Of a stretch of 64,000 bases of DNA, positions 20,981 to 38,900 are shown one piece after another (the stretch's first letter is position 1; each line of letters starts with the position of its first letter). Source of the stretch: an uncultured Clostridium sp. (GTDB taxonomy: Bacteria; Bacillota; Clostridia; TANB77; CAG-508); NCBI GenBank assembly GCA_945946655.1, contig CAMEWM010000003.1:28109-92108 (forward strand), in the 5' to 3' direction. The position numbers and the translations under genes were made by a program. The notes beneath the pieces were generated by a model that saw only the letters and a list, made by a program, of their open reading frames with translations, was not told where the DNA came from and ran no database searches.

Positions 20981-21048
20981 ATTATTCTCTCCTTACATAT
21001 ACTATTTTAATACTTTATATCTAAATTTTCAACCTTTTATATAAGATT

Positions 21049-22281
21049 TTAATTATTCTGAATCCATTTTATTCTCTCTTCTCTCAATTTCTCACCAAAT
21101 TTAACACCTTGAAGTTTTGTATATTTACTAAAAATGTATTCACCATTTATTGTATTCAAACATTGATTTCCTATAGTTGCAAAATTAATATCTTGTGCAT
21201 TGGTATTTCTGCTACTTAATTTATCTGCATTAACTATTATTTGTAATCCATTTAACCCTAAGTTTGATTTATTTACTCGTTCTATAAAATCCACTTTTTT
21301 GGAAGGTTTCATTTTATAGAAAATCCCCCCTCTCATATGTTCCCTACAGGCTATTTGCCCACATTTAATCCATAAGGTTGGCACACCAATTCTATTTCCT
21401 AATTTTTCTACTAGTTCTACACCATTTATTTCATGATTATAATGATGAGGATACTCTTCTTTAGGTGTCACACCTTTTCCTAAATCGTGTACTAATGCAG
21501 AAAATCTTATTGCTAAATCAGTAGTTTCTTGAGAAGCATAGTCTAAGACCATTATTGAGTGAACATATGCATCTCCTTCTGGATGATATTGTTCTGGTTG
21601 TAATGCACCTATTAGATTGTATATTTCCTCAAAATGAACATCTAGCACATTTGCTTTTCTCAATATTTCAAAAAATATAGAAGGCTTTCTTGAATTTAGT
21701 GCCTTCTTGAACTCTTCGAATACTCTTTCTTTGGATAAACTGTTTAACTCATTTTTTACTTCATTCATCATTTTTAAGGTCTTTTTTTCTACTTTAAATT
21801 CAAGTTGTGTAGCAAACCTAGCAACTCTATATACTCTTAACGGATCTTCTTTAAATGCTGGCGTTGTAGCTCTTATAATTTTATCTTTCAAATCTTTTTT
21901 TCCATTAAATGGATCTATTATTTCTTTCGTTAACACATTTTCTGCTATAGAGTTGATTGTTATATCTCTTCGAGACAAATCTTCCTCTATTGTTATATTT
22001 TCATTTGTTATTATATTAAATTCTTTATGACCAACTCCATTTTTAGTTTCTGTCCTAGCCATTGCAAATTCTTTTCCCATCAATGAAAAAACCGCAAATG
22101 ATTTTCCTCTTATCTTTGCTTCCGGAAACATTTTAATAAATATATCTGCGGTGATTCCAGTAATACAATAATCTTCGTCATTAGTATCTCTGCCTAATAA
22201 TCTATTTCGTAAAGCTCCTCCAACTAGATAAAGAGTACCTCCTGATTTTTTTATTTTATTAGCTATATCTACAATGGTCAT
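21049..22281 (-). CDS. cca: CCA-adding tRNA nucleotidyltransferase (Pol-beta head plus HD domain)
   Basis: N-terminal GGALRNRLLG...DxD nucleotidyltransferase motif and a C-terminal HD domain (HDLGK). Confidence 0.9.
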   Translation of the reverse strand: MTIVDIANKIKKSGGTLYLVGGALRNRLLGRDTNDEDYCITGITADIFIKMFPEAKIRGKSFAVFSLMGKEFAMARTETKNGVGHKEFNIITNENITIEEDLSRRDITINSIAENVLTKEIIDPFNGKKDLKDKIIRATTPAFKEDPLRVYRVARFATQLEFKVEKKTLKMMNEVKNELNSLSKERVFEEFKKALNSRKPSIFFEILRKANVLDVHFEEIYNLIGALQPEQYHPEGDAYVHSIMVLDYASQETTDLAIRFSALVHDLGKGVTPKEEYPHHYNHEINGVELVEKLGNRIGVPTLWIKCGQIACREHMRGGIFYKMKPSKKVDFIERVNKSNLGLNGLQIIVNADKLSSRNTNAQDINFATIGNQCLNTINGEYIFSKYTKLQGVKFGEKLREERIKWIQNN

Positions 22282-22341
22282 ATTCTTTTCTCCTTAAATA
22301 AATTTATAATATTTTTTGTATTTTATCTAAATTTATTCTAT

Positions 22342-23004
22342 CTAATAAATAATTCCTCCTCCATAATCGTTTACATCCATGCCTTTAAAATCCACAAGAT
22401 TTAATTTATATTTTTCAATATGCTGTAATACTCTATCTTTGCTTTCTAACTTCTCTAAATCACCGAATAACACAAAATTATGATCAAAGACAAGGCTTGC
22501 ACCTCCTATAAATCCTTGCATCTTTGTCGGGTTGCCTTCTTTATCTAATAGCTTAATATTTTTTTCAACTATATAAGTAACATCTATTCCATATTTTTTT
22601 AATATATTATAAATACCGTAATCTGTGGTAATACAAGAATTCGAACTGGTAACACATATTGAGCATTTTACATATCCTTGTTTTACCGTAATAGTTGGTT
22701 TTATTGTTTTATCTGTATATTTACTTCCTATTATTCTGTTTCCTATCTGGCACGCATTATATGGAACATCCTTTGGATATTTTCTCTCTACTTTTGACAT
22801 TCCTATAATAAAATTATTTTCTATTATAGGGGCATTAGGCGCACAAATAATTTTATCATTTATTCTACAATAAAATATATCGCTATGTGCAGATATTTGC
22901 TCATATGCATAGTTAGATATAGGTAGTTTCTTTACATTAAAATACTTTGATAAGTAATCCATCTCTACGTCACGTATTCTACCATCGATCAATAAATTTT
23001 TCAT
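22342..23004 (-). CDS. Hypothetical protein (220 aa), no recognisable family
   Basis: Clean ORF with host-like composition between cca and hslO. Several Cys (CSICVTSSNSC). No motif I can assign. Confidence 0.45.
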   Translation of the reverse strand: MKNLLIDGRIRDVEMDYLSKYFNVKKLPISNYAYEQISAHSDIFYCRINDKIICAPNAPIIENNFIIGMSKVERKYPKDVPYNACQIGNRIIGSKYTDKTIKPTITVKQGYVKCSICVTSSNSCITTDYGIYNILKKYGIDVTYIVEKNIKLLDKEGNPTKMQGFIGGASLVFDHNFVLFGDLEKLESKDRVLQHIEKYKLNLVDFKGMDVNDYGGGIIY

Positions 23005-23060
23005 TTAGATACTCCCTAGTAATTACAATCTTTTTATAATATATTATTTGTATTGAAGAT

Positions 23061-23936
23061 TTAGATATTATCAGCCATTTTTTGTAATTCATTTCTAGTA
23101 AATACTTGTTTTGAATTACAGAAGTTGCAAACTATTTCTATTTTTTCTTCTTCATTAATTATATTTTCTAATTCTTTTTTACCAATTGCAATTAAACCTT
23201 TTTCACATTTTTCTCTTGAGCAGTTACATTTATATTCAGGATTCACATTCTCTAATACTTTTAAATTGTTATCACCTGTAACTAATTTTGCAATTTCTTC
23301 TAGCGTCTTATTCTCATCTAGCATTTTGCTTATTGGAGCTATGTTTCTTACCTGTTCCTCAATAATAGATATCTCTTCCTCTGTTGCATCTGGCATCAAT
23401 GATAATTTATATCCGCCTGCTGATTTTATTCCGTTTTTATCTACAAGTACTCCTAATGCGATTACAGTCGGAGTTTGTTCAGATGTAGCAAAATAATTTG
23501 TAAAGTCTTCTGCTATTTCTCCACTTACTATTGGAGTCATTCCTACATATGGATTTCCAACACCTAGATCTTTTACAATATATAACATACCTTTTGTCCC
23601 TACGGCTTTTCCTACATCTAGTTTTCCATTTTCTTTTAATGGTAAGTCAATTTGAGGATTACTTACATATCCTTTAACATTACCATTTTTGTCTGATACT
23701 GCAGTAAGCATTCCTATTGGTCCTTCTCCTTTAATTTGATTAGTCACAGTCGCTTCATCCGATTTTAACTCATATCCCATAATACTAGTTATTGTTAGCA
23801 ATCTTCCTAGAGCTGCTGAAGCTGTTGGACTTAAATCATGTATTTTCCTTGCTTTTTCTACAATTTCAGCTGATGATATACATTTTATACTTACTTTACC
23901 ATTATATGCTAAACAATCTATTATTCTATCTTTCAT
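23061..23936 (-). CDS. hslO: Redox-regulated chaperone Hsp33
   Basis: 291 aa. C-terminal zinc centre CxC...CxxC (CNCSREKC...CNFCNSK). Confidence 0.9.
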   Translation of the reverse strand: MKDRIIDCLAYNGKVSIKCISSAEIVEKARKIHDLSPTASAALGRLLTITSIMGYELKSDEATVTNQIKGEGPIGMLTAVSDKNGNVKGYVSNPQIDLPLKENGKLDVGKAVGTKGMLYIVKDLGVGNPYVGMTPIVSGEIAEDFTNYFATSEQTPTVIALGVLVDKNGIKSAGGYKLSLMPDATEEEISIIEEQVRNIAPISKMLDENKTLEEIAKLVTGDNNLKVLENVNPEYKCNCSREKCEKGLIAIGKKELENIINEEEKIEIVCNFCNSKQVFTRNELQKMADNI

Positions 23937-23937
23937 T

Positions 23938-24888
23938 TTATTCTTCTCCTTTTTTTATAAATTTAGATACAAAAAATCCCTCCATATTTTTTGAAGGCAA
24001 TATTCTCATTGCATTATTTATAGATTTATCCAGCCCATTATTAAATGCTGGAATTCCTTCTCTTATTTCTATATTTAATGGTACAAGTTTTATATTAAAA
24101 TTATTAATCGCCCAGTCTAGTATACATTCATTTTCTTCTTTATTTAATGTACATGTAGAATACACTAATGTTCCATTAGGCTTTAGTGCATTGTAAGCAC
24201 TTTTAAATAATTTTTTCTGCATCTTTGTAAGCTCTTTTACAGTTCTAGTAGACCATGATTTGTAAGTTTGAACATTATAAATAGAGAATCTTCCTTCTCC
24301 ACTACATGGAGTATCAAGCAAGACCTTATCAAATTTTTCATTATATTGTTCTCCTAACTTTTCTCCACGTCCATTTATAACTTCAACAATTTTGGCTCCT
24401 TGCACAATTACATTATATTTTAATCTCTCACATCTTAATTTGTCTAATTCATTTGCTAAAATATAGCCTTTTCCGTTCATTAGTGCAGCCATTTGTGTGG
24501 TCTTACTTCCCGGAGCTGCAGTTACATCCAATATGCACTCGCCTTCTTTTGGGTCAAGCACTAATGGTGGTACCATGCTTGACAAGCTTTGAAGATATAT
24601 ATATCCATTTTTATAAATGTCCAATTTTTGTATTTCTTTTTCATTTGCATTTTTTATTATCAGAGCATCTTTATACCATAATATTCGCTCAAACTTTATA
24701 TTAATTTCTTTAAAATATTTCATTAAATCTTGTATATTATATTTTAGTGTGTTAACTCTTATAGTTGTATATCTTTTTTCAGCTATTCCTCTAAATATAT
24801 TATCAACTACTCCTGGAGAAAACATTGTATATAAATTATCTACAAATTCTTCCGGTAATCTATTTTTTATTTCTGTAATTGATGGCAT
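23938..24888 (-). CDS. RNA cytosine-C5 methyltransferase, NOL1/NOP2/Sun (RsmB/RsmF) family
   Basis: SAM-binding motif (DVTAAPGSKTT) and catalytic PCSG / TC motifs (DTPCSGEG, YSTCTLN). Confidence 0.85.
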   Translation of the reverse strand: MPSITEIKNRLPEEFVDNLYTMFSPGVVDNIFRGIAEKRYTTIRVNTLKYNIQDLMKYFKEINIKFERILWYKDALIIKNANEKEIQKLDIYKNGYIYLQSLSSMVPPLVLDPKEGECILDVTAAPGSKTTQMAALMNGKGYILANELDKLRCERLKYNVIVQGAKIVEVINGRGEKLGEQYNEKFDKVLLDTPCSGEGRFSIYNVQTYKSWSTRTVKELTKMQKKLFKSAYNALKPNGTLVYSTCTLNKEENECILDWAINNFNIKLVPLNIEIREGIPAFNNGLDKSINNAMRILPSKNMEGFFVSKFIKKGEE

Positions 24889-24988
24889 ATTTTTTCCTTT
24901 CTTTTGAATTATTTTATTATATAATCAATTTATTCTAAATTGTACTTTTATTTATATGAGGCAGGTTCATCGAACCCGCCTTTTTTGC

Positions 24989-26374
24989 TTAGGATTCATA
25001 CACGATAATTGGCATTGTGTCGTCTATATTTTCATATATTATATTTGCCTTATCTGCCGGTAAGTTCACACAACCATGAGATCCATTTGTCAGGTATATT
25101 TCTTTTCCAAACTGTTTTCTCCACGATGCGTCATGCATACCGATTCCTTTGTTAAATGGCATCCAATATTGCACAAACGAAGAATATCTTGTTCCATTAT
25201 CATTGAAGCCTTTTAGATATACATTTCTAGCTTTATATGTCAAGTAGAACACTCCTGTCGGAGTATTATGTCCGGCTTCAACATCCCCTGTAACACAAGG
25301 GGAATCCACAATAAGCGCTCCATCTTTATACATCCATACATGTTGCCTAGAAATATCTATCTCCACATGGCTCGTCATATGTTCTGAAATAAGTTCTCTA
25401 TCATAAATTGGCATCGTGTTAATTGGTTCAGAATTGCCTAACATATCTTTTATTATAGCTATTTCGGTTTCTTTATCCAGTTGCGCCCGTACTTTTTGTG
25501 GTACATTAACAGTAACCATTTCCATAGAATCGGCTGCGATGAACTGCATATTTGAATTAGCTTCATTCACCATAACAGCAAGATTTTCCACAAAGTCATA
25601 AATTCCTTGATCTGTATTTATTACAAACTCTCCATTTTTATCTTGGTATACCCAATGCTTAATTGTATTAGAGTCTAATGTCACAACGTTACCATTGCTT
25701 AGGTTAAAATTGATAGAACTTCCTAATATAGAATTGAGATAATCTCTTTTAGGTATCAAGTCCTCCTCCACGATTTCTGGATCTATTTTTGTAATTGTTG
25801 AAAAATCGATTTGTTCATCCTGATTTTCCAATTTTTTAATAGCTAGTTCCATTGCTTCATCAAAATTAATCTTGCTACCTAGACATTCCTTTTTTATTGA
25901 AAATTCAGTATCATTCCAAGTCAGATACGCATTTTCAGGGTCAACCATGTTTTCCTCTTTTAATTCAGGTATCTGTCTAAGAAATTGTTCTACTAACGCT
26001 CTATCTACTGAAATAAAACTAATTAAATTATAGTCTCTTTCTTCCCTCCAATTTACATGCTGTTTTTCAAATATCTGCTCAATCTGATAAATGTCAATAC
26101 TAATTCCAAACTGTCTCAAATGTGTGACATACTCTTCTCCATCACTAAAAATGAATGATATCGCATTTTCACCTTTTTCTTTGCTAATCTTTGTAACTGC
26201 TTCATCAATGCTTAAATACGAACAATCAACGTTTTCTATTTTGGTGTTTCCTAAGAAATGTGTCTGACAAAAGTAATGTGCTCCCAAAAACGCGATTAAA
26301 AGAAGTATTAGAGCTAAAACACCCCCTACTATGCTCTTTGTCCGTTTTTTCTGCCATTTCATTTCAAAATCCAT
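24989..26374 (-). CDS. L,D-transpeptidase (YkuD domain) with N-terminal TM anchor and putative VanW-like, peptidoglycan-binding region
   Basis: C-terminal YkuD catalytic motif (GMHD...SHGCVNL). N-terminal single TM. Confidence 0.85.
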   Translation of the reverse strand: MDFEMKWQKKRTKSIVGGVLALILLLIAFLGAHYFCQTHFLGNTKIENVDCSYLSIDEAVTKISKEKGENAISFIFSDGEEYVTHLRQFGISIDIYQIEQIFEKQHVNWREERDYNLISFISVDRALVEQFLRQIPELKEENMVDPENAYLTWNDTEFSIKKECLGSKINFDEAMELAIKKLENQDEQIDFSTITKIDPEIVEEDLIPKRDYLNSILGSSINFNLSNGNVVTLDSNTIKHWVYQDKNGEFVINTDQGIYDFVENLAVMVNEANSNMQFIAADSMEMVTVNVPQKVRAQLDKETEIAIIKDMLGNSEPINTMPIYDRELISEHMTSHVEIDISRQHVWMYKDGALIVDSPCVTGDVEAGHNTPTGVFYLTYKARNVYLKGFNDNGTRYSSFVQYWMPFNKGIGMHDASWRKQFGKEIYLTNGSHGCVNLPADKANIIYENIDDTMPIIVYES

Positions 26375-26594
26375 CCTTTCTATGTTGTTAAAGTAATTAT
26401 ACTATTAACAAATTGTTTATAGGTACGAATGTCATTATACTATAATTAACATAACATGTCAAACAGATTTCTACATGCTTATAATATGATACCATAATGT
26501 ATGGATATAAGTGCCTGGCAAGGCGATACAAAAACAGTTGCAGAAATAGCATGTGTAAATGATATAAAGAGTTATTAAATCTAATAAATTTTAA

Positions 26595-26623
26595 TTGATT
26601 TGTCCATTTTATATGTTATAATG
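26595..26623 (+). promoter_or_regulatory. Sigma-A type promoter with extended -10 for the 26645 orphan gene
   Basis: TTGATT (26595-26600), 17-nt spacer, TGtTATAAT (26615-26623). AGGAGG RBS at 26631-26636. Confidence 0.5.
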
Positions 26624-26644
26624 AAATTATAGGAGGAATATAAA

Positions 26645-27244
26645 ATGAATAATGAATTAATGATTAACATGCCATCAGACTTTCAAAGAATGAATACCTT
26701 ACCAGAAGATCCTGCTAATTCAATTGCTTATGGAAAACAAACTCAATCATCAACTATGTTTGTGATGATGTATCCAATAAGCAATCAAGCTGCAATGCCT
26801 TATGGAAATGATAAAGTGGTAGTAGATGGTATTCATGGTGTATTATCTGAAACTCAAGGATTGGTTGAAGTCAAATCTGGTTCAACAAAAAATCAAAAAA
26901 GATATATCTATAGTATTGTAAAGACAAAATTAAATCCAAGTGGAATGCAATATGTTTTAACAATGCACATTGATATGAATGATCATGCTATAAATATTCA
27001 ATCATATTTTGATGAAGTAGGAATGACTGGCTTAAGGGATGCAACAATAATGAATAAAATGATTAGTGAAGGAAAAATTACTCCACCAAATATGGATGGT
27101 TGGTTTAAAGATCCTTATGATGAAAATTATAGAAGAGGATTATTGAGAAATGAATCAGAAAAACCAGAGTATGACGCAATGTTTCCACAACATCCTTTAT
27201 CAGAAATGAGAAATTTTATCAAATATTTAGTAGAAAACAATTGA
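26645..27244 (+). CDS. Hypothetical protein (199 aa), monocistronic orphan
   Basis: Strong RBS, own promoter and own terminator. No recognisable domain. Confidence 0.5.
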   Translation: MNNELMINMPSDFQRMNTLPEDPANSIAYGKQTQSSTMFVMMYPISNQAAMPYGNDKVVVDGIHGVLSETQGLVEVKSGSTKNQKRYIYSIVKTKLNPSGMQYVLTMHIDMNDHAINIQSYFDEVGMTGLRDATIMNKMISEGKITPPNMDGWFKDPYDENYRRGLLRNESEKPEYDAMFPQHPLSEMRNFIKYLVENN

Positions 27245-27320
27245 GATTTATCTAAAGACGATAGATATTATATTCACATTTAAAAATGTTACATAAAAAA
27301 GGTATCAGGATACACATTAT

Positions 27321-27362
27321 AAAGAGCTTAGTTTCATTCATCTAAAACTAAGCTCTTTTATA
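27321..27362. terminator. Bidirectional rho-independent terminator
   Basis: aaagagcttagtt-tcattcatctaa-aactaagctcttt hairpin plus T-run, between convergent genes. Confidence 0.65.
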
Positions 27363-28295
27363 TTATCTATTATTTATCCATTCATATACATAATCATAGA
27401 CTTCATATCTTCTATTTCCTTCATGTAGTATGTCGTGTCTTAATTCTTTATATAATCTAATATCTATACTTTCCATTCCTGCTTTTTTAAAATCATTATA
27501 AGCTCTTATTACTCCTTTGCCACATTCCCCTACTGGATCTTTATCTCCTGATAGAAATAAAACAGGCATCTTCTTATTCATTTTCTCAATGTTTTTTATT
27601 TTTCCTGTAAAAGACATCCCTGATAGCATCTCTCTGAAAAGTCCTGCTGAAAGATTATCTCCACGTCTTTTGTCTGCGATGTATTCATCTAGGCTTTTAT
27701 TATCTGAGCATAGCCAATCAAAATCTGTTCTATTGGGAGCAAATACTTTATTATATGTCTCAAATGTTAGTTTCCTTATCATTGGACTTGAATGATCTTC
27801 TCCAACTTTTTTTGCTTCATTTTTAACAGCAAATTTTGCAATTGCAATCTGTAGTGCAGGAATTTCTCCTGTCCCGACTAATATTGCTGCATCCACATTA
27901 TTGGGATATTTTATTAGATATGTTCTTGCTAAAAAAGAGCCTAATGAAAAACCTAATAATATATATGGAATTCCTTGCAATTTTTCTTTTATTTTAGTCC
28001 TACATGTATTCAAATCCTCTACTGCCCAATTCCAACTGCCAACTGGTCCAAAATACATTGGTTGCGCACCTTCTGCTATAGATAAGCCATGCCCTAAGTG
28101 ATCATTTCCCACCACAGCAATGCCTCTGTCTGTCAAATATTTAGCAAAGTCTTCATACCTTAAAATGTATTCCGTCACTCCATGGGCAATCTGCAAAACA
28201 GCCTTTGTTTCCCCATCTGGTAGCCATTCTACTGCATGTATTTTTGTCTTTCCATCTGCCGACATATAATAAAATTCATTCTTTCTCATTTTCAT
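27363..28295 (-). CDS. Alpha/beta hydrolase (lysophospholipase / monoacylglycerol lipase-like)
   Basis: 310 aa. Nucleophile elbow GFSLGS (GxSxG). HG oxyanion-hole motif. Confidence 0.85.
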   Translation of the reverse strand: MKMRKNEFYYMSADGKTKIHAVEWLPDGETKAVLQIAHGVTEYILRYEDFAKYLTDRGIAVVGNDHLGHGLSIAEGAQPMYFGPVGSWNWAVEDLNTCRTKIKEKLQGIPYILLGFSLGSFLARTYLIKYPNNVDAAILVGTGEIPALQIAIAKFAVKNEAKKVGEDHSSPMIRKLTFETYNKVFAPNRTDFDWLCSDNKSLDEYIADKRRGDNLSAGLFREMLSGMSFTGKIKNIEKMNKKMPVLFLSGDKDPVGECGKGVIRAYNDFKKAGMESIDIRLYKELRHDILHEGNRRYEVYDYVYEWINNR

Positions 28296-28503
28296 TCCTT
28301 CTTTCTTTAGTATTTCTATTTATTATTTTCCTATAAATATTTGAACATAAATTATTCCATATTTTTGACTTTTCACTACTCCTATTCCAGTATAATTAAA
28401 ATTGCTGCTTAATATGTTTGCTTTATGTCCGGATGAATTCATTATAAACGTAAATCTCCCTTAATTAAAGGTATTATTTTATGAATGTCCATTATGTATG
28501 TTT

Positions 28504-29658
28504 TTACTTAATAATAATGTTATTCTTTTTTAGTTCCCTTATCAATCCCTCAAAATTGTTTATATCGAATACATATCCCCTCATTCCACATTTTTCGCTT
28601 GCTATTATATTCTGCTCATTATCATCAATAAAAAAACTCTCTTCTGGATTTAATTTGAACTTTTCGAATAATCTATAATATATATTCGCATTTGGTTTCA
28701 TCATTTTCTCTTTCGCTGATATTAAAAATCCATCAAAATATTTGCCACATTCTGAATTTTTTACATATTCATATACTGATATATGTGTATTAGATAATGC
28801 ATAAACATTATAATTATTTTCTTTCAATTTTTTTATTAAGTTACAAATATCCATATTCATAGGCATATATTCATACCATGTGCTCATTATTTTTTCGAGC
28901 TTTTTCTGTAAGTTGCTTGGTAACTTTTCTTTAAATATTATCATAGCTTCTTTATAGTTGATAAGACCTTCATCTAATTTAAACCATTCTTCTGATTTAA
29001 ATATGACTTTTTTCAATATTTCTTTTTCTTCATCATTATCTGCAAATTTTGATACAATATAATCTTCATTCCAACCCAGTAAAACATTACCTAAATCAAA
29101 TATTATATTTTTTATTATATTGTTATTCCTCAATCCATACTTTTTTATATTTTCCTTTGTTGCAAATCCATTTGGCGTCTTTACCTTCTCTAAAAAAGTT
29201 ATTCCCTCTAAATGATCACATTCGTGTTGTATCAATCTTGAAAAAAATCCTTTTAAATTTTTTACTATTTTCTTTCCATCTTCATTATAATATGTTAATT
29301 CTATCTCTTTATACCTTTCAACTTTTCCTCGTATTTCTGGAACACTCATACATCCTTCATATTGGATATCTGTATCTTCTGATAATTTTCTCCAGCTTGG
29401 ATTAATCATTGCTGTTAGTGGTATATCTTCAGCATCATTATAAGTAATATTGTCTTTTGATGCGCCCACCACAATAATTTTCTTATTGACTCCTATCTGC
29501 GGTGCCGCTATTCCCAATCCAGTGCCAAATTGCAATGTCGTTTTTAAATCTTCAATTATACCTATAATCTCCGAATTTATATTTTCAATATCAACTTCTT
29601 CTGATATCTTACCTAGAGCAGGGTCTCCAACTTCCCTAACTTTTAAAACCTTTCCCAT
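28504..29658 (-). CDS. def: Fusion protein: N-terminal peptide deformylase plus C-terminal YihX-like HAD-IA phosphatase
   Basis: PDF motifs I to III (GLGIAAPQIG, EGCMSVPE, QHECDHLEG) in aa 1 to about 165. C-terminal roughly 200 aa carry HAD motifs closely resembling E. coli YihX (FDLGNVL, LSNT, K...FFIDDNEQNI). Single uninterrupted frame. Confidence 0.85.
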   Translation of the reverse strand: MGKVLKVREVGDPALGKISEEVDIENINSEIIGIIEDLKTTLQFGTGLGIAAPQIGVNKKIIVVGASKDNITYNDAEDIPLTAMINPSWRKLSEDTDIQYEGCMSVPEIRGKVERYKEIELTYYNEDGKKIVKNLKGFFSRLIQHECDHLEGITFLEKVKTPNGFATKENIKKYGLRNNNIIKNIIFDLGNVLLGWNEDYIVSKFADNDEEKEILKKVIFKSEEWFKLDEGLINYKEAMIIFKEKLPSNLQKKLEKIMSTWYEYMPMNMDICNLIKKLKENNYNVYALSNTHISVYEYVKNSECGKYFDGFLISAKEKMMKPNANIYYRLFEKFKLNPEESFFIDDNEQNIIASEKCGMRGYVFDINNFEGLIRELKKNNIIIK

Positions 29659-29696
29659 TTATTAGCTCCCATTTTTCCTTAAACTTATTTAATTAT

Positions 29697-31658
29697 TTAT
29701 ATTTGTTTTAATTTTCCTGATTTGTAAAATTTTAATAGTTCTTGTAAATCTTTAATTTCATTTTTTAGTTTTTTCCCAATATCTGTGTCTCCTACTGTTT
29801 TTCTTGTTATTCCAGTTTTCTTTACAATTAACTCTGAAATAATATCTTTTTCTTCTACAATAGCCTTTTCTACAGATTCAAAAGGCTTATTTTGGTTTAG
29901 TAATAATCCATTAGAATTATATGTCAATACGTATCCTGCATTGCCCGTTTTTTTCTGATAGCTTTTGGCAAATCCCCCATCAATCACTAACAATTTTCCA
30001 TTTGCTCTTATTGGGCTTTCTCCATCTTTTGCTTTTACTGGAATATGTCCATTTACTATATGAGATTCATTTTCATCTAATCCAAATTCTCTTAAAATTT
30101 TATTGCATATATCCTCTCTGCTTGTTAAGTAATAATATGGATTTTTAGCCTCTTTATGTGTTTCCTCATTTTTTACAAAGTAACTTTCAAATGTTGCCAT
30201 CTTATCTCTACCAAAAAATGGAGAGTCTGGAGAAATCCATAAATACCACATTATGTCTAATGTATCTTCATCAATGTTGTCCCTATTAAAATATATTTCT
30301 TTAATTTTTTCATTAATTCTATCTAAATATTGCTTCCCTTTAACTCTTTTTCCTAAAAATTCTACTTCTTTAAATTCGCCATTGTCCTCCATTGGTATGC
30401 ATGCATGGAATAATAAATTAGAATTAAATATTGTATAGACTTCTCCTTTTTGGCACAAAAAGCTAATATGATCATTTAATTTAGGACTATGCTTGAAAGA
30501 ATCACAAAGTCTTTCCATTATTTCATTTTCTTCTGTTGTTAACTCATATGGATTTTCCGGATCTATTGTCGGGAAATTTATATCATTTAATTCATATTTT
30601 TCTCCATCAATTACTACATAACCTTTTTTTAAATTCATTTTATCTAATAGCAATCTATTTTCCATATGGTATTCTGGATGTTTTTTTATAACTTGTCCTT
30701 CTATCTTAAATTGTATTATAGTGATTGCTTTATGTATTTTTGCAATACTAGTTTTATCGCTATCATCATATTTACTTTCATCATAAACTTTTGGCATAAA
30801 GTTTATGCAGTCATCATTTTTATATTTTTCCATTGCAAATGTTGCTAGTGGTCTTATATTTATTCCATATCCATCTTCTAAAATTGCTATATTATTGTAT
30901 CTTGCGCAGATTCTTATAACTGTAGCTATATTTGCCTTATTACCACAGGTAGCACCCATCCACGAAATATCATGGTTTCCCCATTGCATATCTACACTAT
31001 GAAAGTTCTTTATTCTCTCTATTACTAAATCTGGATGCTGTCCTCTATCATATACATCACCAATTATATGTAGATGATCAATAGCCATTCTCTTTATAAG
31101 ATTTGACAATGCTATTATAAAACTATCAGCTTGGTCTAGCTCTATTATAGTTTTAATAATTGCTTTATAATATCTTTCTTTATCTTTTTCATTACCTGTT
31201 TGCGAATTTAGCAACTCATCTATTACATATTCAAATCCATTTGTAATAGCTTTTCTCACTTTCGATCTTGTATATTTAGAGCTAACTTTTTTAGCGACTT
31301 CAACCAATCTATATAATGTAATGTTATACCATTCGTTTAAGTCCTCTACTTCCTTCTTCATAAGTTTTAATTTTTCCTCTGGATAATAAATTAAAGTAGC
31401 AAGTGTGGCTCTTTCTTTTTTAGTTATAGTATTTTCATATAAATCATCTATTTTGCTTTTAATTATACCTCCACCGTTATTTAAAATATGTTCAAAAGGC
31501 TCATATTCTCCATGTATATCACTTAAGAATATCTCTGTTCCTTTTGGTAGATTAATTATCGCTTGTAAATTTATAATTTCTTCTGCAACTTCATTTATAT
31601 TTTTGTATTCTTTACTCAATAGTTTTAAATATTTTTCTTCATCATATTCATTTTCCAT
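29697..31658 (-). CDS. fbp: Fructose-1,6-bisphosphatase class 3
   Basis: Class III FBPase signature (KYLKLLSKEY...LPKGTEIFLSDIHGEY). Start assigned to the internal Met at 31658, which is preceded by AGGAGG; the track ORF extends to 31706. Confidence 0.9.
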   Translation of the reverse strand: MENEYDEEKYLKLLSKEYKNINEVAEEIINLQAIINLPKGTEIFLSDIHGEYEPFEHILNNGGGIIKSKIDDLYENTITKKERATLATLIYYPEEKLKLMKKEVEDLNEWYNITLYRLVEVAKKVSSKYTRSKVRKAITNGFEYVIDELLNSQTGNEKDKERYYKAIIKTIIELDQADSFIIALSNLIKRMAIDHLHIIGDVYDRGQHPDLVIERIKNFHSVDMQWGNHDISWMGATCGNKANIATVIRICARYNNIAILEDGYGINIRPLATFAMEKYKNDDCINFMPKVYDESKYDDSDKTSIAKIHKAITIIQFKIEGQVIKKHPEYHMENRLLLDKMNLKKGYVVIDGEKYELNDINFPTIDPENPYELTTEENEIMERLCDSFKHSPKLNDHISFLCQKGEVYTIFNSNLLFHACIPMEDNGEFKEVEFLGKRVKGKQYLDRINEKIKEIYFNRDNIDEDTLDIMWYLWISPDSPFFGRDKMATFESYFVKNEETHKEAKNPYYYLTSREDICNKILREFGLDENESHIVNGHIPVKAKDGESPIRANGKLLVIDGGFAKSYQKKTGNAGYVLTYNSNGLLLNQNKPFESVEKAIVEEKDIISELIVKKTGITRKTVGDTDIGKKLKNEIKDLQELLKFYKSGKLKQI

Positions 31659-31702
31659 AATTAACCTCCTTAACTTATAAATCTTAATGGAGCTACTATT
31701 AA

Positions 31703-32239
31703 TCATAATAGACTTTTCTCATAATATCTTTTTAAGAAATTCCATGGCCCTGTTTTATCTGTTATTCCATCATAATTATTGTTAATTCTATCAATTATTT
31801 CCTGTCTTGTAAACCACCTTATATCTGATACTTCATCCTCTTGTAGTTTTATCTTAGATATGTCTACATCTTTATTTACAATATAGCACTCATTGAAATG
31901 ATTATTGATTATATTTTTTTGAATATTTGTGGAAGTTGACCCTACTAGATACATTATTTCTGTTTTTGATATATCAAGTCCTAGCTCTTCTCTCATTTCT
32001 CTGATTAATGCTTGATATCCAAACTCTCCTGCTAATACATGTCCCCCAGCTGTAATGTCCCACAAGTTTGGCCATAACTTTTTATTAGCACTTCTTTTTT
32101 GTAATAATACATCTCCATTTTTATTAAATATAAAACCATATATTGCTCTGTGCCATAATCCTTGTTCATGACAAACTTCCCTGGTTTCAACTCTTCCAGT
32201 AAATTCACCATGCTCATTTAATACATCAAAATATTCCAT
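31703..32239 (-). CDS. NUDIX hydrolase
   Basis: Nudix box GGHVLAGEFGYQALIREMREELGL (Gx5Ex7REUxEExGU). Confidence 0.85.
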   Translation of the reverse strand: MEYFDVLNEHGEFTGRVETREVCHEQGLWHRAIYGFIFNKNGDVLLQKRSANKKLWPNLWDITAGGHVLAGEFGYQALIREMREELGLDISKTEIMYLVGSTSTNIQKNIINNHFNECYIVNKDVDISKIKLQEDEVSDIRWFTRQEIIDRINNNYDGITDKTGPWNFLKRYYEKSLL

Positions 32240-32338
32240 AGTATTTCTCCTTTTAAATATTCATAATTTTCCTTATCCAATTATAAGTTTTTATCCGTAT
32301 AAATCTAAAATATCATCTTGTACTATATATTATCATCA

Positions 32339-33214
32339 TTATTCTAATCCTTTTAGAATCCCATATACCATTGAAATATCAGTTGGCACAACATATTTTG
32401 CTCCAATTTCTTCTGCCACTACTAGAACAAAAGCACACATTGCTCTTGTGGCATACCACCAATCAGGATCATTAACTTTTTTTCTTATTTCATCTAAAGA
32501 TATTTCCTTGTAATACCTTTCAGTATCTTTTCTTCTTGTTTCTATATCCATCATTATTGGTGATGCATTATCTTTATATAGAATATTTTTCTCATACTTT
32601 ATGCCAGACATTCTTGCAAATTTCTCATGTCCTCCACCAGATAGTATTAATATGTCTGCCTTTTCTTTTGGTAAATTTAGTCTTTCTCTTATAAAATTCT
32701 TTACTTCTTCTATATCTGTTGTTGCATAATCTCCTGCCAAATCCGGAAAATCCTGCATTACATCAATAACTCCAATCTTAGTATTTACACTTTCTTTTAT
32801 TTCATTATCATATATTGCAATCTCTGTTGAGCCTCCTCCACCAATAAATACACATGCTCTATCTTTTATAAACCTTGTTGCTCCATACACAGTAAGTTCA
32901 TTTTCTCTTTCCTGCGAAATAATGTCAAAATTATATCCAGTTTCGTTTTTAAATCTAGTTAAAAAATCGTTTCTCTCTACATCATCTAAAGTTCTAAAAA
33001 TACTTGTTCCACATACATATATATCTTTAGAAATGCATTTTAGATCATTTATGCTCTTTACTAATTCTTTTATATCACTTTCTCTCAATTCTTTATCTTC
33101 ATTATAATGTTTTTTGAATTGTATTGTTTTTCCTTCCAATTTTTTTATGTTTTCACCATCAAATTGGTCAATTTTTGTACATGTTGAACCTACTTCTACA
33201 ATTATTTTATTCAT
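32339..33214 (-). CDS. Ppx/GppA-family phosphatase (ASKHA fold, N-terminal domain only)
   Basis: IIVEVGSTCTKI (phosphate-1 loop) and VFIGGGGSTEIAIY (phosphate-2 loop, DIGGGSTE-like). Confidence 0.65.
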   Translation of the reverse strand: MNKIIVEVGSTCTKIDQFDGENIKKLEGKTIQFKKHYNEDKELRESDIKELVKSINDLKCISKDIYVCGTSIFRTLDDVERNDFLTRFKNETGYNFDIISQERENELTVYGATRFIKDRACVFIGGGGSTEIAIYDNEIKESVNTKIGVIDVMQDFPDLAGDYATTDIEEVKNFIRERLNLPKEKADILILSGGGHEKFARMSGIKYEKNILYKDNASPIMMDIETRRKDTERYYKEISLDEIRKKVNDPDWWYATRAMCAFVLVVAEEIGAKYVVPTDISMVYGILKGLE

Positions 33215-33320
33215 TTAGATCTCCTATATCATAAAAATATTTTTTACATTCTATCATATAACCATAAAAAAAGGAAGTGTCTTGTAAACACTCCAAATAA
33301 TTTTAATAGTAAGATTTCCT

Positions 33321-34697
33321 CTACTTCTTCAAATTTAGCACTGCCACACACTCCACATGTTTCGTAAATGGAAACATATCTACTGGTTGTATTCTATTTA
33401 TATTATAAATTTCTTCCATCTTTGATAAATCTCTAACCATAGTCGCAGGGTTGCAACTTATATAAACTAATTTCTCGGGTTTAATTTTTAATATGTTTTG
33501 TATTGTTTTATCGTCTAGTCCCTTTCTTGGTGGATCTACAATTATTGCCGTTGGAACAATGTTCTTTTTATTTATTAGCTCATCAAAAGAAATTTCTACA
33601 TCACCAACCATGAATTCTGCATTTTTTATATTATTTATTCTAGCATTTTCTACTGCATCATTAATAGCCTGAGGCACTATTTCTATTCCATAAACCTGTT
33701 TTACATATTTTGATGCAAATATACCTATTGTACCTATTCCACAATATAAATCAAATAATACATCATCCTTGCTTAAGCTTGCTGCTTCTATTGCTGTATT
33801 ATACAATATTTCTGCTTGCACTGGATTTACTTGGTAGAATGACATTGGTGATATTTTAAATGTATATTCTCCCAATTTATCCTCTATATATCCATCGCCA
33901 TATAAATTAATATTTTCTTTTCCTAGTATAACATTAGTGTTTTCATTATTAATATTTTTCACTATAGTCTTTATTTCAGGATATTGAGCGCACAATACTT
34001 TTACAATATCATGTTCTATCTCATTATTTGCTTTTTTCTCATTTACTACTAATATACACATTACTTGATTTGTATATTTTCCTACTTTTACTACTATATG
34101 CCTAAATAATCCTGTTTGTTTTTCTTCATTATATACTGATATATTTTTTTCTCTTATAAAATTTAAGATTGTTTTGGCAATTCTTTGTGATACTTCAGTT
34201 TGTATCTTGCAACTTTCTATCGGGATAATAGTATGTGTCCTTTGTGCAAATACTCCAATATCTGGCATTCCCTCTTTATTTAGTCCAACAGGATATTGTG
34301 CTTTATTTCTATAATTGTATGGATTATCCATTCCTATTGTAGATTCTACTGTAATTTTATTCTTTAAGTTCTTGTTTACTAGGCTTTGCACTGTTTCTTT
34401 TTTTAGCTTCAAAGTGTTTTCATATGTCATATGTCTTAAATCACATCCGCCACATCTCTGATATGTAGAGCAATCTACTTCTACTCTATTTTCCGAAGCC
34501 TCTATTATTTGGATTAATTTTCCATAGGCTTGAGAAGACAATACTTTCACAATTAATATTTTACATTTTTCTCCCTTTATAGCATTTGGTATGAATATAG
34601 TAAAACCATCAATTTTAGCAATGCCTTCTCCTCCAAAGCCATTGTCCACTATATCAACTATGTATGTTTCATTCTTTTTTACTGGAATTTTATTCAT
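33321..34697 (-). CDS. rlmD: 23S rRNA (uracil-C5)-methyltransferase RlmD/RumA family (TRAM domain, 4Fe-4S, SAM MTase)
   Basis: N-terminal TRAM. Cys cluster (C..CGGCDLRHM). C-terminal MTase with DPPRKG motif and nucleophile Cys (YISCNP). Confidence 0.9.
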   Translation of the reverse strand: MNKIPVKKNETYIVDIVDNGFGGEGIAKIDGFTIFIPNAIKGEKCKILIVKVLSSQAYGKLIQIIEASENRVEVDCSTYQRCGGCDLRHMTYENTLKLKKETVQSLVNKNLKNKITVESTIGMDNPYNYRNKAQYPVGLNKEGMPDIGVFAQRTHTIIPIESCKIQTEVSQRIAKTILNFIREKNISVYNEEKQTGLFRHIVVKVGKYTNQVMCILVVNEKKANNEIEHDIVKVLCAQYPEIKTIVKNINNENTNVILGKENINLYGDGYIEDKLGEYTFKISPMSFYQVNPVQAEILYNTAIEAASLSKDDVLFDLYCGIGTIGIFASKYVKQVYGIEIVPQAINDAVENARINNIKNAEFMVGDVEISFDELINKKNIVPTAIIVDPPRKGLDDKTIQNILKIKPEKLVYISCNPATMVRDLSKMEEIYNINRIQPVDMFPFTKHVECVAVLNLKK

Positions 34698-34712
34698 TTT
34701 CTTTTTCCTCTT

Positions 34713-35765
34713 TTAAACAATAAATTTTCCTATTTTAGGAATTCTCGATAGAATGTATGATGGAATCGCACTTAATATATATATAATTATAGTGGCTATT
34801 GGAATAGATAATATTACTGGCCATTGTAATAAACTTATATTTAATTTACTCATAATTACTATATACATTGGATGTATTAAATATACTCCTAGCGAAAGTT
34901 TTGTCCATTTATTTATGATTACTTGAGTCTTCTCAGCAAATCTTTTTTTCAAAAATATTTGCTTTACCATACAAAATACAGCCATGGAATTTAAGCATAC
35001 TGGAGCAGACAAAGCATTATAAAAAACAGTTGGTAATTTATAATCAGTAATTTTTAAATATCTAGTCCCTAGTATAATGAAAATTACAGATAATATTCCC
35101 AAGACATATAATATGTACCTTGTATGCTTTTTAATATCATACTTACTTAAATAATAGCCTAATATGTAATATCCAACAAATCCTAAGAAGAAATCTATGT
35201 GGAAATTTGCATATATTATATCCAAATTAGAAAATATCGGTAGTTTTATTATCATATTTAAGCAACATTCAGATATAAACCAAATTATCAAGAAATACTC
35301 TATTATTTTTTTGTTCTCAGGTTTTGTAATTAGTTTAATTATTGGTGTTGCTAGGTACAGACCAATTAACATATATAAATACCATAAATGGTAATGCCCA
35401 TTTATAAAACTCATAATAAAATACTTTGTACTAATGTCCGGTGTTAATAAAGCTCTATCCAATATTGCATAAAAAGCAGACCAGATTACTAGCATAATCA
35501 TTACTCTTTTTATATATTTCTTAAATATTTTCGATATTTTAATTTCTTTTTCTTCGGGAAGAAGTAACATGCCTGTTACCATTACAAATATTGGAACTCC
35601 CCACCTGACAATCGAGTCATATATATTTATAATATTCCATTCTTTACTAGTTGCATCTATCATATACCAATCTATCGCTGATACATGTAATAACACTACT
35701 GCTATGCTTGCAACAATTTTAAGTATATTTGCGTATAGTATTTTTTCTCCATTTTTTTCTTCCAT
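34713..35765 (-). CDS. Acyltransferase family 3 integral membrane protein (OatA/WecH-like, no SGNH domain)
   Basis: 350 aa with about 10 TM. N-terminal conserved His in the LLHVS context, typical of acyltransferase-3 O-acyltransferases. Confidence 0.85.
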   Translation of the reverse strand: MEEKNGEKILYANILKIVASIAVVLLHVSAIDWYMIDATSKEWNIINIYDSIVRWGVPIFVMVTGMLLLPEEKEIKISKIFKKYIKRVMIMLVIWSAFYAILDRALLTPDISTKYFIMSFINGHYHLWYLYMLIGLYLATPIIKLITKPENKKIIEYFLIIWFISECCLNMIIKLPIFSNLDIIYANFHIDFFLGFVGYYILGYYLSKYDIKKHTRYILYVLGILSVIFIILGTRYLKITDYKLPTVFYNALSAPVCLNSMAVFCMVKQIFLKKRFAEKTQVIINKWTKLSLGVYLIHPMYIVIMSKLNISLLQWPVILSIPIATIIIYILSAIPSYILSRIPKIGKFIV

Positions 35766-35777
35766 TACATTTCCTTT

Positions 35778-35942
35778 TAAATCTCATTGTTTATATCTTT
35801 TATTTTTTTATTTAATTCTTTTTCATCTTCTTTATTTTCCAATATTGTTTCTAGTACACCTAAGTCAAAGTCAGAAGAAATTTTCTTCAAATATTTTTCT
35901 CCTTCGTCTAGTCCTAAGTCTTTAAATGTCTTTTCTTTCATG
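35778..35942 (-). CDS. Small acidic protein, 54 aa (MKEKTFKDLGLDEGEKYLKKISSDFDLGVLETILENKEDEKELNKKIKDINNEI); below the ORF-track size cutoff
   Basis: Hand-translated. ATG at 35942 with AAAGGA about 9 nt upstream. It lies 24 nt after the stop of the 1280-aa gene and ends 13 nt before the acyltransferase start. No Cys. Confidence 0.35.
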
Positions 35943-35966
35943 TTTTGCCATCCTTTCTCTGCAAAG

Positions 35967-38900
35967 TTATTTAAAGTTTTCTATTAGCTGTTCTTCGCTT
36001 ATCTCTTTATTATTATATAGAAAATCTACTACTTTGTCCATTTTTTCTTTATTTTCTGTTATTATATTGATGACATCCTTAAAGCACTCTTCTAATATCT
36101 CATTAACCTCTTTTAATACATCTTGAGACAATTCTGTATCCTCATTTTCAATTTGTGCTAATCCAAATTTTGACATTCCATAACGTGTTACCATGTTTCT
36201 TGCAATTCTAGTTGCGTGTTCTAAGTCACTAGTATTTCCATTACAATATTCTCCTAAGTATACTTTTTCTGCTCCCATTCCAGCAAGCGATACTTTTATC
36301 ATATTTAGCAGTTCTGTTTTTGATTGAGTATAACCACTTGTTCCTTTATGAGCTACATACCCTAGCGTGCCAGTTCCTTCAGCATTTATTGTAATTTTCT
36401 TTATTCCAGGTTCTTTAAATAGTATCAATCTTAAAATTGCATGCCCCACTTCATGTATAGCAGTATTTTTCTGTGCCTCTTCAGTTATCTTGCTTGGATC
36501 AATCATTGATTGTCCTCTAAAAATACATGAAGTCATCTCTTGTATAGTTGGAATGTCTTGCTGCTTTATAGTAATAATATCATCTGAATTATTTTTTGCA
36601 TGTTTCATTAATATTTCTTGTAGTAACTTATCAACAAATCTACCATTTCCTATATTATCAACGTTGCAAAAATATTTTATTACTTTTTTCACGTCTTCTT
36701 TTGCACTTTCTTCTATTTTCATTCCTGTATTTTCAATCTTTTTATACAGAATAGATTCTAATTCACTATCGTTATAATCGGGGAAGTCAAATGTATAACC
36801 TATTCTCGAAGCTATTCCTGGGTTACTATCTACAAAATCCTTCATCTCTTTTTTGTATCCTGCAAAGATTACTACAAATTCTCCCTTATGATCTTCCATT
36901 GCCTTTATTAATGTTGCTATTGCTTCTGCACCAAAATCATATTGTGCTCCTTTCCCTTGAGTAAGGCTATAAGCCTCATCAATGAACAATACTCCTCCCA
37001 TTGCTTTTTCAATTACTTCTGACGTTTTCGGTGCTGTCTGCCCAACATATCCTGCTATTAAATCTTTTCTTTCTACTTCTATCAACTTGTTTTCATGTAT
37101 TATTCCTAAGTCGAATAACATCTTAGCCATTATTCTTGCTATGGTTGTTTTTCCTGTTCCAGGATTTCCTGTAAACACCATATGCATATTCTGTGCTGCT
37201 ATATCTATTTCATAGTTTTGAGCCTTCTTTAAAAATCTTACATATGATTCAAAATCTTTAATTTTTTTCTTTAGATCTTCTAACCCTATAACATTATTCA
37301 GTAATTTATCTACTTCAGTTGCATCTTGAACGTCATTATTGGTTAGCTCTTCTATTGTTGGTATGTCAGCTTCACTAATAGATGTTATTTTTTCATTTTC
37401 ATTCTTAGAATGTTTCATAATTGTCTCTTGTACTAATTTATCTACAAATCTGCCATTTCCAAACATCTTTCTCTTTGAATAATATGAAAATATACCTAAT
37501 AATTTATTATCTAAGTTTTCAGATAACTCAAATCCCATATTTTTCATCTTGATTTTATATATTTCTAGAAGTTCTTCTTCTGTATAATCTGGAAAGTCAA
37601 ATGTATAGCCTATTCTTGATGCTATTCCTGAATTACTATCGATAAAAGTTTTCATTTCATCTTTATACCCTGCAAAAATTACTACAAATTCTCCTTTATG
37701 ATCTTCCATTGCCTTTATTAATGTCGCTATTGCTTCTGCACCAAAGTCTGAGGAACTTCCTTTTACTTGAGCAAGACTATAAGCTTCATCAATAAACAAT
37801 ACTCCTCCCATTGCTTTGTCTATTACTTCTGACGTTTTCGGTGCTGTCTGCCCAATATAAGGTGCTATTAAATCTTTTCTTTCTACTTCTATCAATTTAT
37901 TTTCACGTATCATACCTAAATCATATAGCATTTTTGCCATTATTCTTGCTATTGTCGTCTTGCCAGTTCCTGGATTTCCTGTAAACACCATATGCATATT
38001 TACATTCGCTAAATTTATTCCATTAGCCTTCGCTTTTACTTGGAAAAGCATATATTGTTCAAATTCTTTCAATTTGTTTTTTACGTTTGATAAACCAATT
38101 ATGTTCTTTAAACTTTCTTCCACAGATTCCTTTTTATACATATTATCTGGAAAAACAACTTTATTCTTTGAATTACTATAAATAGCAAGATATCTTGCCA
38201 ATTCATTATTAGAAAATGGTAAGAATTTCTCGTTAAAACTTACAAAGTCAATGAATTGTTTTTTATACTCATCTTTATTCTCTCTTAAGTTTCTAATTAG
38301 ACTATCTTTTAAAGAACTTGAATATACTTCAAACATTTCATCTATTGTTATTTTTGGGAATTTAAACCTATAGCTTTGATACACAAACTTCAATCTTGGG
38401 TCTAATCCTATTAAGTTATCTATTTCTTCCTCTGTTCCAACTAGTATTATATAGTGTTCCAAGTACAATGATGTTAGAATTTCTATTATATTTTCATATT
38501 GTTTTCTTTTTATCTCTTTGTATTCTCCAATTCCTATAGTGGCATCTTTATATAGTTTATAGTCATCAACAAACTCTTTTATACCTGTCAATACATATAA
38601 TTTACCTTCTTCTATATCAATACGTCTAACTTCCGAATAAGAATTTATAGGTTCATATGGTGGTCTTGCTGTAATTCCATAAGTTGTCCTTGCAGCTAAA
38701 TTTTGCATACTGATACTAATAGGATTCTCCGTCTTTGTTTTCCCATATCTATATAATACTTTTGATATCTTTTTAATAAATTCAGTCTTTCCAACACCTC
38801 TATCTCCTTCTATTGTACAATGTAAGTTTTGTTGAAATTTATTTGTCATGATTTCGATTAAACTATTTACATTCAGTATTTTCTCATTATATTTTAATAT

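Follow-up and report, generated by a model that had tools for sequence, protein, structure and literature searches.

A peptide deformylase fused in frame to a HAD-IA phosphatase in an uncultured Clostridium

Why should a peptide deformylase (PDF, encoded by def), normally an enzyme of a single domain, carry a second complete enzyme at its C-terminus? The question is raised by one gene in a 64,000-nucleotide stretch of DNA from an uncultured Clostridium sp. (contig CAMEWM010000003.1, positions 28,109 to 92,108), which we call the window. A complete open reading frame (ORF) of 384 codons and a TAA stop lies on the minus strand at 28504..29658, begins at the ATG at 29656-29658, and joins a PDF to a phosphatase of the HAD family. 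We find that the fusion is real and that it joins two complete neighbouring genes, one for a lineage-specific peptide deformylase and one for a HAD-IA phosphatase. The explanation we favour, with a probability of roughly two in three, is that a small deletion fused the two neighbours, that the halves work independently, and that the fusion is tolerated and not selected for a joint function.

The fused gene and its two halves

The ORF runs through its 384 residues without an internal stop. The identical 1155-nt DNA with the same neighbours is present in six independent assemblies from the Sequence Read Archive (SRA). The 90%-identity cluster of the protein has 32 members; the 15 that were listed, on more than 100 contigs, all have 384 residues, and no truncated variant is among them. 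The junction is also unchanged in the two most divergent variants, which come from other samples. A preliminary description of this DNA had read the gene as an in-frame fusion and had proposed a check for a missed stop or a frameshift between two genes. The fusion is confirmed and neither error is present. The only circumstance that might favour a sequencing or assembly artefact is that the junction, being AT-rich and homopolymer-rich, is an error-prone kind of place. Such an artefact is ruled out, because the six assemblies are identical, the divergent variants share the junction and all the listed cluster members are of one length; a separate HAD gene would moreover have no start codon. We give this explanation next to no weight.

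In a large protein database, the PDF-HAD architecture is found only in the window's own species, where every sampled variant has it. A search for the fusion in related genomes had been suggested; in other species, other partners occur. A full-text literature search returned no description of a PDF-HAD or PDF-NUDIX fusion, and no precedent for PDF-HAD was found among solved structures. As judged from the sequence, two well-known families are combined here in a domain architecture that is new.

The N-terminal half (residues 1-177; 29128..29658, minus strand, as are all positions given for the fusion) ends in ...NGFATKENIKKYGLR and was delimited by Pfam and NCBIfam profiles and by comparison of module boundaries. 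The Pfam profile Pep_deformylase (PF01327) matches residues 5-161 with an E-value of 1.1e-45 (155.5 bits against a cut-off of 22.8), and the NCBIfam models NF001159 (146 bits, cut-off 125) and TIGR00079 (119.1 bits, cut-off 103.95) are matched as well. All three PDF motifs, reported as intact in the preliminary description, were located and are invariant in our clade alignment (A1). These are GLGIAAPQ (residues 47-54; 29497..29520), EGCMS (residues 101-105; 29344..29358), in which Cys103 is a metal ligand, and HECDH (residues 145-149; 29212..29226), in which His145 and His149 are metal ligands and Glu146 is the catalytic residue. By its profile matches and catalytic motifs, this half is a complete peptide deformylase.

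The closest solved relatives of the PDF half are the stand-alone enzymes of Leptospira interrogans (1szz/1sv2) and Arabidopsis (PDF1A, 1zxz), with E-values from 6.5e-35 to 7e-30. Residues 1-177 align with such PDFs (PF01327) end to end, and GxGxAAxQ, EGCxS and HExxH are all present. Unlike them, the window's PDF bears a 204-residue C-terminal enzyme domain and belongs to a clade that is confined to uncultured gut Clostridia and in which this copy is dispensable in some species. PDFs are usually single-domain proteins, as had been stated, and most of the 150 best library representatives have about 160-220 residues. Close relatives of the PDF half (70-80% identity) were found only in metagenome-assembled genomes (MAGs) of uncultured gut 'Clostridium sp.' or 'Clostridia bacterium', for example Clostridium sp. 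CAG:465 (organism names are the titles of NCBI records). The clade is sharply set apart from other PDFs: in an exhaustive search of 1.8 billion representatives, only 21 reach E <= 1e-30, and identity falls from 65% or more to 49% or less. This library collapses the clade into few clusters and so gives no census of architectures.

Neither a second def nor an fmt gene lies within the 64-kb window. Two MAGs hold two copies of the PDF clade each, on different contigs and in different contexts: L011 and L024 in CALXXK01, and L050 and L054 in CALXVA01 (L numbers denote the loci scanned; P numbers denote database proteins). These pairs may be either true paralogues or the product of bin contamination.

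The C-terminal half (residues 181-384; 28507..29118) corresponds to a full-length stand-alone gene of 203-206 residues. It exceeds the cut-offs of PF00702 (residues 182-358, E 3.6e-12, 47.5 bits against 26.4), PF13419 HAD_2 (residues 243-360, E 3e-11, 44.2 bits against 23.8) and TIGR01509, the model for HAD-IA variant 3 (41.9 bits against 29.4). The HAD motifs previously noted in this half were all placed with a further alignment (A3): motif I is FDLGNV (residues 187-192; 29083..29100), motif II is LSNT (residues 288-291; 28786..28797), motif III is the lysine in MMKPN (residues 319-323; 28690..28704), and motif IV is FIDDNEQN with its DD pair (residues 343-350; 28609..28632). Motifs II, III and IV are canonical. 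Motif I keeps the nucleophile Asp188 but has a glycine and not an aspartate at the +2 position (a D-x-G form); the D and the G are invariant in the alignment. Most variants read FDFGNV, and the FDLGNV of the window is a minority allele. Between motifs I and II, the AlphaFold2 (AF2) model has a helical C1 cap with helices at residues 198-203, 209-220, 223-229, 235-245, 254-264 and 269-280, predicted with a local confidence (pLDDT) above 90.

The HAD half is 66-70% identical to its stand-alone homologues; stand-alone genes of 203-206 residues are found at L001, L004, L096, L097 and L098. It had been described as a YihX-type phosphatase, which holds at the generic level of HAD-IA variant 3 but not at that of the YihX equivalog. 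The half shares its four motifs and the helical cap with E. coli YihX (alpha-D-glucose-1-phosphatase; 2b0c/8pno), yet its score of 47 bits is far below the cut-off of 295 for the equivalog PRK09456, and orthology was rejected on this ground. YihX structures are only the sixth to eighth best matches in the PDB (E 1e-8). The best solved relative, closer than YihX, is the N-terminal HAD domain of bacterial drimenol synthases (9m7d/9mhs; E 2e-19), which shares the unusual D-x-G motif I (FDLGDV, read from the alignment). The half is YihX-like at the subfamily level only. Unlike both of these enzymes, the window's HAD occurs in its species only as the C-terminal half of a PDF fusion.

The junction was located by a codon-by-codon comparison with the stand-alone HAD genes in L001, L004 and L088 and with the 3' ends of stand-alone def genes. 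It lies at 29116..29127 (residues 178-181), just below the 29130-29180 estimated before, and consists of codons 178-180 (NNN, the usual three-residue def tail) and codon 181, ATA (Ile). Of the 46 related proteins matched, 45 have the boundary of the PDF module at residue 177 and one has it at residue 176; the shared end of the module is ...NGFATKENIxKY(N/G)LR. Three residues past this LR is where stand-alone PDFs of the clade stop most often, after NEK, EVN or NKN. Stand-alone HAD homologues begin with ATG ATA AAA AAT ATA ATA TTT GAT (MIKNIIFD...), and the window reads ...TTG AGG AAT AAC AAT and then ATA ATA AAA AAT ATA ATA TTT GAT. Ile181 thus sits exactly where the stand-alone gene has its ATG start, with no stop, spacer or linker in between. 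The junction matches the native C-terminus of def and the native start of the HAD gene, both halves have separate, full-length counterparts among the genes of related genomes, and compared with those genes the fusion lacks only the def stop codon and the spacer. Because the former start is now ATA and the next methionine, residue 239, lies beyond the nucleophile Asp188, a functional HAD enzyme can be translated only within the fusion.

The AF2 model has two folded domains, with a mean pLDDT of 92.6 and a predicted template modelling score (pTM) of 0.62. The pLDDT dips to 61-79 over residues ~151-180; this dip and the pTM value suggest that there is no fixed packing between the domains, and the model fits two independent domains on a flexible tether. 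The ratio of nonsynonymous to synonymous polymorphism (pN/pS) is similar in the PDF and HAD halves (0.39 and 0.30), a comparison that is weakly informative with only 10 polymorphic sites. Both halves look functional, to judge from intact motifs, confidently predicted folds and low, similar polymorphism.

Other partners of the same deformylase module

The HAD phosphatase is one of many partners of this PDF module. The species-representative genomes gave 59 full ORFs. About 48 of these (~80% of species) encode a stand-alone PDF of 176-188 residues, and seven encode fusions, with a NUDIX domain (L001, L004, L020), FtsK-gamma (L005), an HD domain (L013, L033) or a DUF4406-like tail (L035). The large protein database adds to these, and the partners found after residue 177 are HAD, NUDIX, HD, GNAT, FtsK-gamma, Ham1, Ppx/GppA, DUF4406-like and P-loop proteins. 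In all, at least ten unrelated partner families are attached at the same residue. Rarer hybrids are found too, two of them with the partner on the N-terminal side of the PDF module. The NUDIX and HD fusions retain the partner's own methionine at tail position 4-9 after the LR.

Many of these partners can be traced to the neighbourhood of def. Other genomes have stand-alone homologues of the HAD, NUDIX, Ham1, GNAT and Ppx/GppA partners as def neighbours: those of the HAD half (66-69% identity) are located two to five genes from def in L001 and L004, and def and Ham1 are 7 nt apart in L060 and fused in P0048. The surrounding genes form an array (29697-34697 in the window, minus strand; 1299-8837 in L089) with Maf, YfbR-like HD, CYTH, NUDIX, Ppx/GppA-family, Ham1 (sometimes in two copies), ASCH and HAD genes, many of which appear from their families to be small hydrolases of the nucleotide 'house-cleaning' type. 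In the window, a Ppx/GppA-family gene (291 residues) and a NUDIX gene (178 residues) at 31703..33214 (minus strand) represent the local pool that supplies fusion partners in other species. Both the gene content of the array (745 ORFs fall into 435 clusters) and its gene order differ greatly from one species to another, and 398 of the 432 neighbouring ORFs are on the def strand.

The fused state also changes between close relatives. A NUDIX-fused and a stand-alone PDF module are 96% identical, and a GNAT-fused and a NUDIX-fused module are 99% identical. In the latter pair, the DNA is 98.9% identical up to the def tail, where homology breaks: one side continues with the GNAT tail and an AP-endonuclease-2 gene, the other with the NUDIX tail and an ASCH gene, and homology returns at the Ham1 gene. 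Just 3' of the PDF-GNAT stop in L089 (6062-6121), we noted a CYTH-like fragment of ~60 nt that is probably the scar of an earlier rearrangement.

Three further observations concern fusions in this lineage. The same HAD family is joined to a Nudix-like N-terminal domain of ~240 residues in 443-residue proteins (P0057-P0059, P0065, P0066; L099, L101, L102), and the HAD gene is for this reason itself a repeated fusion partner. A composite of NUDIX and the family c38 is encoded in the same arrays (L018 1594-2637, L049 7636-8670, L050 7635-8678), whereas c38 is a separate gene of ~190-200 residues in L012 and L042; fusions in the lineage are therefore not limited to def. Finally, a widespread form of 270 residues combines the PDF module with an isolated FtsK-gamma winged-helix DNA-binding domain (P0002-P0007, P0012-P0014, L005 6001-6828). 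Because FtsK-gamma is normally the C-terminal end of FtsK, this form is not a simple fusion of whole genes.

Among known systems, the def-fmt fusions (P0080 and P0083, PF01327 with PF00551) likewise place PDF at the N-terminus of a longer protein made from neighbouring genes. They join two steps of one pathway, whereas the partner in the window has no known link to formylation and the partners vary by species. As in Rosetta-stone fusions, the same genes are separate and of full length in relatives, and the junction falls at a native end and a native start. Unlike in the usual Rosetta-stone case, def is a recurrent hub with at least ten partners at one residue in a narrow clade, and its state flips at 96-99% PDF identity. 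The arrangement further resembles polymorphic toxins of the CdiA-CT and Rhs types in its constant N-terminus, its sharp boundary motif (KYNLR), its unrelated C-terminal domains and their exact replacement at this point in one strain pair. However, the PDF fusions have no secretion signal, toxin domain or immunity gene, their tails are housekeeping enzymes that also occur as separate neighbours, and most species have no tail. A system of this kind was rejected on the lack of secretion and toxin domains and the nature of the tails.

How the fusion may have arisen and what it may mean

Six species representatives (L062, L063, L069, L070, L071 and L073) have, in mid-contig, a disrupted def copy at this locus. 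L069 and L070 share a deletion of codons ~11-80 that removes motif 1; in addition, the ATG is gone from L069, and motif 2 of L070 is interrupted by a stop. In L073, codons ~62-111 are missing, motif 2 included. The def gene ends at codon 127 in L063 and at codon 106 in L071, in both cases before motif 3, and in L071 it runs into the 3' part of an HD gene, forming the same hybrid as the database protein P0069. In L062, def is frameshifted. With catalytic motifs lost in these six representatives, the copy is evidently dispensable in some species, which argues against its being essential in the clade, and it appears to be redundant in the lineage. The lineage would therefore have another route of deformylation, most simply a second def elsewhere in the genome, and such a route would explain why this copy tolerates rearrangement. 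The earlier suggestion of a def paralogue is plausible in this sense of redundancy, but a new specialisation does not follow from it.

Fusions of this type could arise easily in a compact, same-strand, AT-rich array in which the def stop lies near the next start. The gaps between def and the next gene include -23, -11, -4 (at four loci), 2, 2, 4, 4, 5 and 7 nt. ATGA overlaps come after A-runs, and the TTG AGG codons for the LR of def provide a Shine-Dalgarno-like GAGG for the downstream gene. Since the def stop often abuts or overlaps the next start, small lesions would readily yield in-frame joins. We propose that in the window's species a small deletion took out the def stop codon and a short spacer before an adjacent HAD gene. 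The product would be a two-domain protein on a flexible tether, in which the PDF half is predicted to remove N-formyl groups from nascent chains and the HAD half to act as a Mg-dependent phosphatase. The two halves would act independently, and the fusion would be tolerated rather than selected, possibly helped by the redundancy of the def copy, broken as it is in several related species. The gene looks like one of many accidental joins between def and its neighbours and not like a designed functional link.

Several observations weigh against this account. The deletion is deduced and not observed, because no unfused def-then-HAD adjacency was found in the 73 genome or 13 metagenome loci. Where it is kept, the PDF module is 70-80% identical across species, compared with 56-68% for the neighbouring RlmD-like gene, and the DUF4406-like and FtsK-gamma fusions persist across many species; a conserved module and persistent fusions imply that the fusions are not obviously harmful and that some might be selected. 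The partners include many nucleotide or phosphoester hydrolases, and this could mean a shared function and not just the local supply of genes. A scan for composite proteins found others (NUDIX with c38, Nudix-like with HAD), but it counted truncated ORFs at locus ends as components and was too noisy to show whether def is more prone to fusion than the genes around it.

The preliminary description had raised a moonlighting or regulatory link between deformylation and the phosphatase. A fusion that is functional by design could have PDF dock at the ribosomal exit and carry the HAD enzyme (elsewhere NUDIX, HD, Ham1 or GNAT) to the ribosome or the nascent chain, or could couple the expression and stoichiometry of the partner to translation. 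E. coli PDF reportedly binds the ribosome via its C-terminal helix, and a flexible tether as in the AF2 model would leave both active sites free. The exact attachment point shared by at least ten partner families, the persistence of several fusions across many species clusters and the high conservation of the PDF module would fit such a carrier as well. We nevertheless consider it unlikely. The module is unfused in ~80% of species, its partners are functionally unrelated (a DNA-binding FtsK-gamma, GNAT, phosphatases, a P-loop protein) and match whatever genes are nearby, fusions to the upstream gene and truncated hybrids also exist, the def copy has been lost outright in six species, and no solved or published precedent was found. 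A specific link between deformylation and the phosphatase is accordingly not supported, the partners being too varied, absent from most species and a mirror of the local gene pool. Quite improbable, too, is a broader version in which PDF is a general N-terminal carrier that places house-cleaning enzymes at the ribosomal exit and in which fused and unfused forms might switch reversibly by slippage in the A-rich def tail; if it were true, the repeated fusions would form a modular system under selection and would not be neutral accidents.

One half might instead be a passenger heading for loss, with the redundant PDF serving as a translated leader for the HAD enzyme or the reverse. Disrupted def genes at the same locus in six related species would suit this, as would the loss of the HAD half's own start codon, which makes it rely on the def start, and the restriction of the fusion to one species. 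We doubt it: the catalytic motifs of both halves are all intact, both domains are predicted at a pLDDT above 90, and polymorphism is low and similar in the two halves, with the listed cluster members all of full length. Very unlikely is a re-specialised def paralogue, that is, a PDF-fold enzyme acting on a non-ribosomal substrate related to that of the phosphatase. The sharp separation of the clade from other PDFs and the position of the gene among nucleotide house-cleaning genes and not beside fmt are in its favour; however, the half exceeds the curated thresholds of both the equivalog and the subfamily models for PDF, its catalytic and metal-binding motifs are canonical, its nearest solved relatives are bona fide PDFs, and the partners are too varied for a common pathway.

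Taken alone, the PDF-HAD protein is a curiosity, probably with no joint function. Across the clade, a single deformylase gene has become a fusion hub: it has at least ten partners, often switches between fused and unfused states and now and then decays. This pattern is a natural experiment on the C-terminal cargo that PDF and its ribosome docking can tolerate. It also illustrates how multi-domain proteins can come about where stop and start signals overlap in genomes that are compact, AT-rich and prone to deletion. Such fusions are likely to mislead automated annotation and the prediction of function through guilt by association.

Neighbouring genes and minor observations

The window has a G+C content of 29%. 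The order of genes on the minus strand is RlmD-like, Ppx/GppA-like, NUDIX, class-3 FBPase, PDF-HAD and alpha/beta hydrolase, and the PDF-HAD gene is not adjacent to fmt. Just 38 nt separate it from the FBPase gene upstream. A Shine-Dalgarno-like GGGAG (29666..29672, minus strand) is found ~8 nt 5' of the ATG (...AATGGGAGCTAATAA-ATG).

The RlmD/RumA-like gene, which encodes a TRAM domain and a U5 methyltransferase domain (33321..34697, minus strand), served as a synteny anchor: 37 related loci have it upstream of the PDF gene and in the same orientation. In L090 (1517-3280) and L093 (1126-2850), the exact place that it has in the sister strains L089 and L091 is taken by a gene for a large serine recombinase of 574-587 residues (Resolvase, Recombinase and Zn_ribbon domains). 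A ParB-like HTH gene is close by, and a mobile element has probably integrated at rlmD here. The idea that the whole array is a phage or mobile element was rejected, as the recombinase looks like an insertion at rlmD that does not make the array itself mobile. Shuffling of cassettes as in integrons was likewise rejected, since a search of L089 and of the window at 21000-37000 turned up only weak AT-rich chance repeats and no attC-like or REP-like element capable of driving the exchange of cassettes.

Two other genes of the window deserve mention. An ORF of 199 residues at 26645-27244 (plus strand) has no Pfam match, is the only opposite-strand gene of the local array and is conserved in independent assemblies. 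On the minus strand at 35967-39809, a protein of 1280 residues combines two AAA ATPase modules, an nSTAND3-like NTPase region and a C-terminal Peptidase_M41 domain; it is FtsH-like, of unusual architecture and about twice the usual length.

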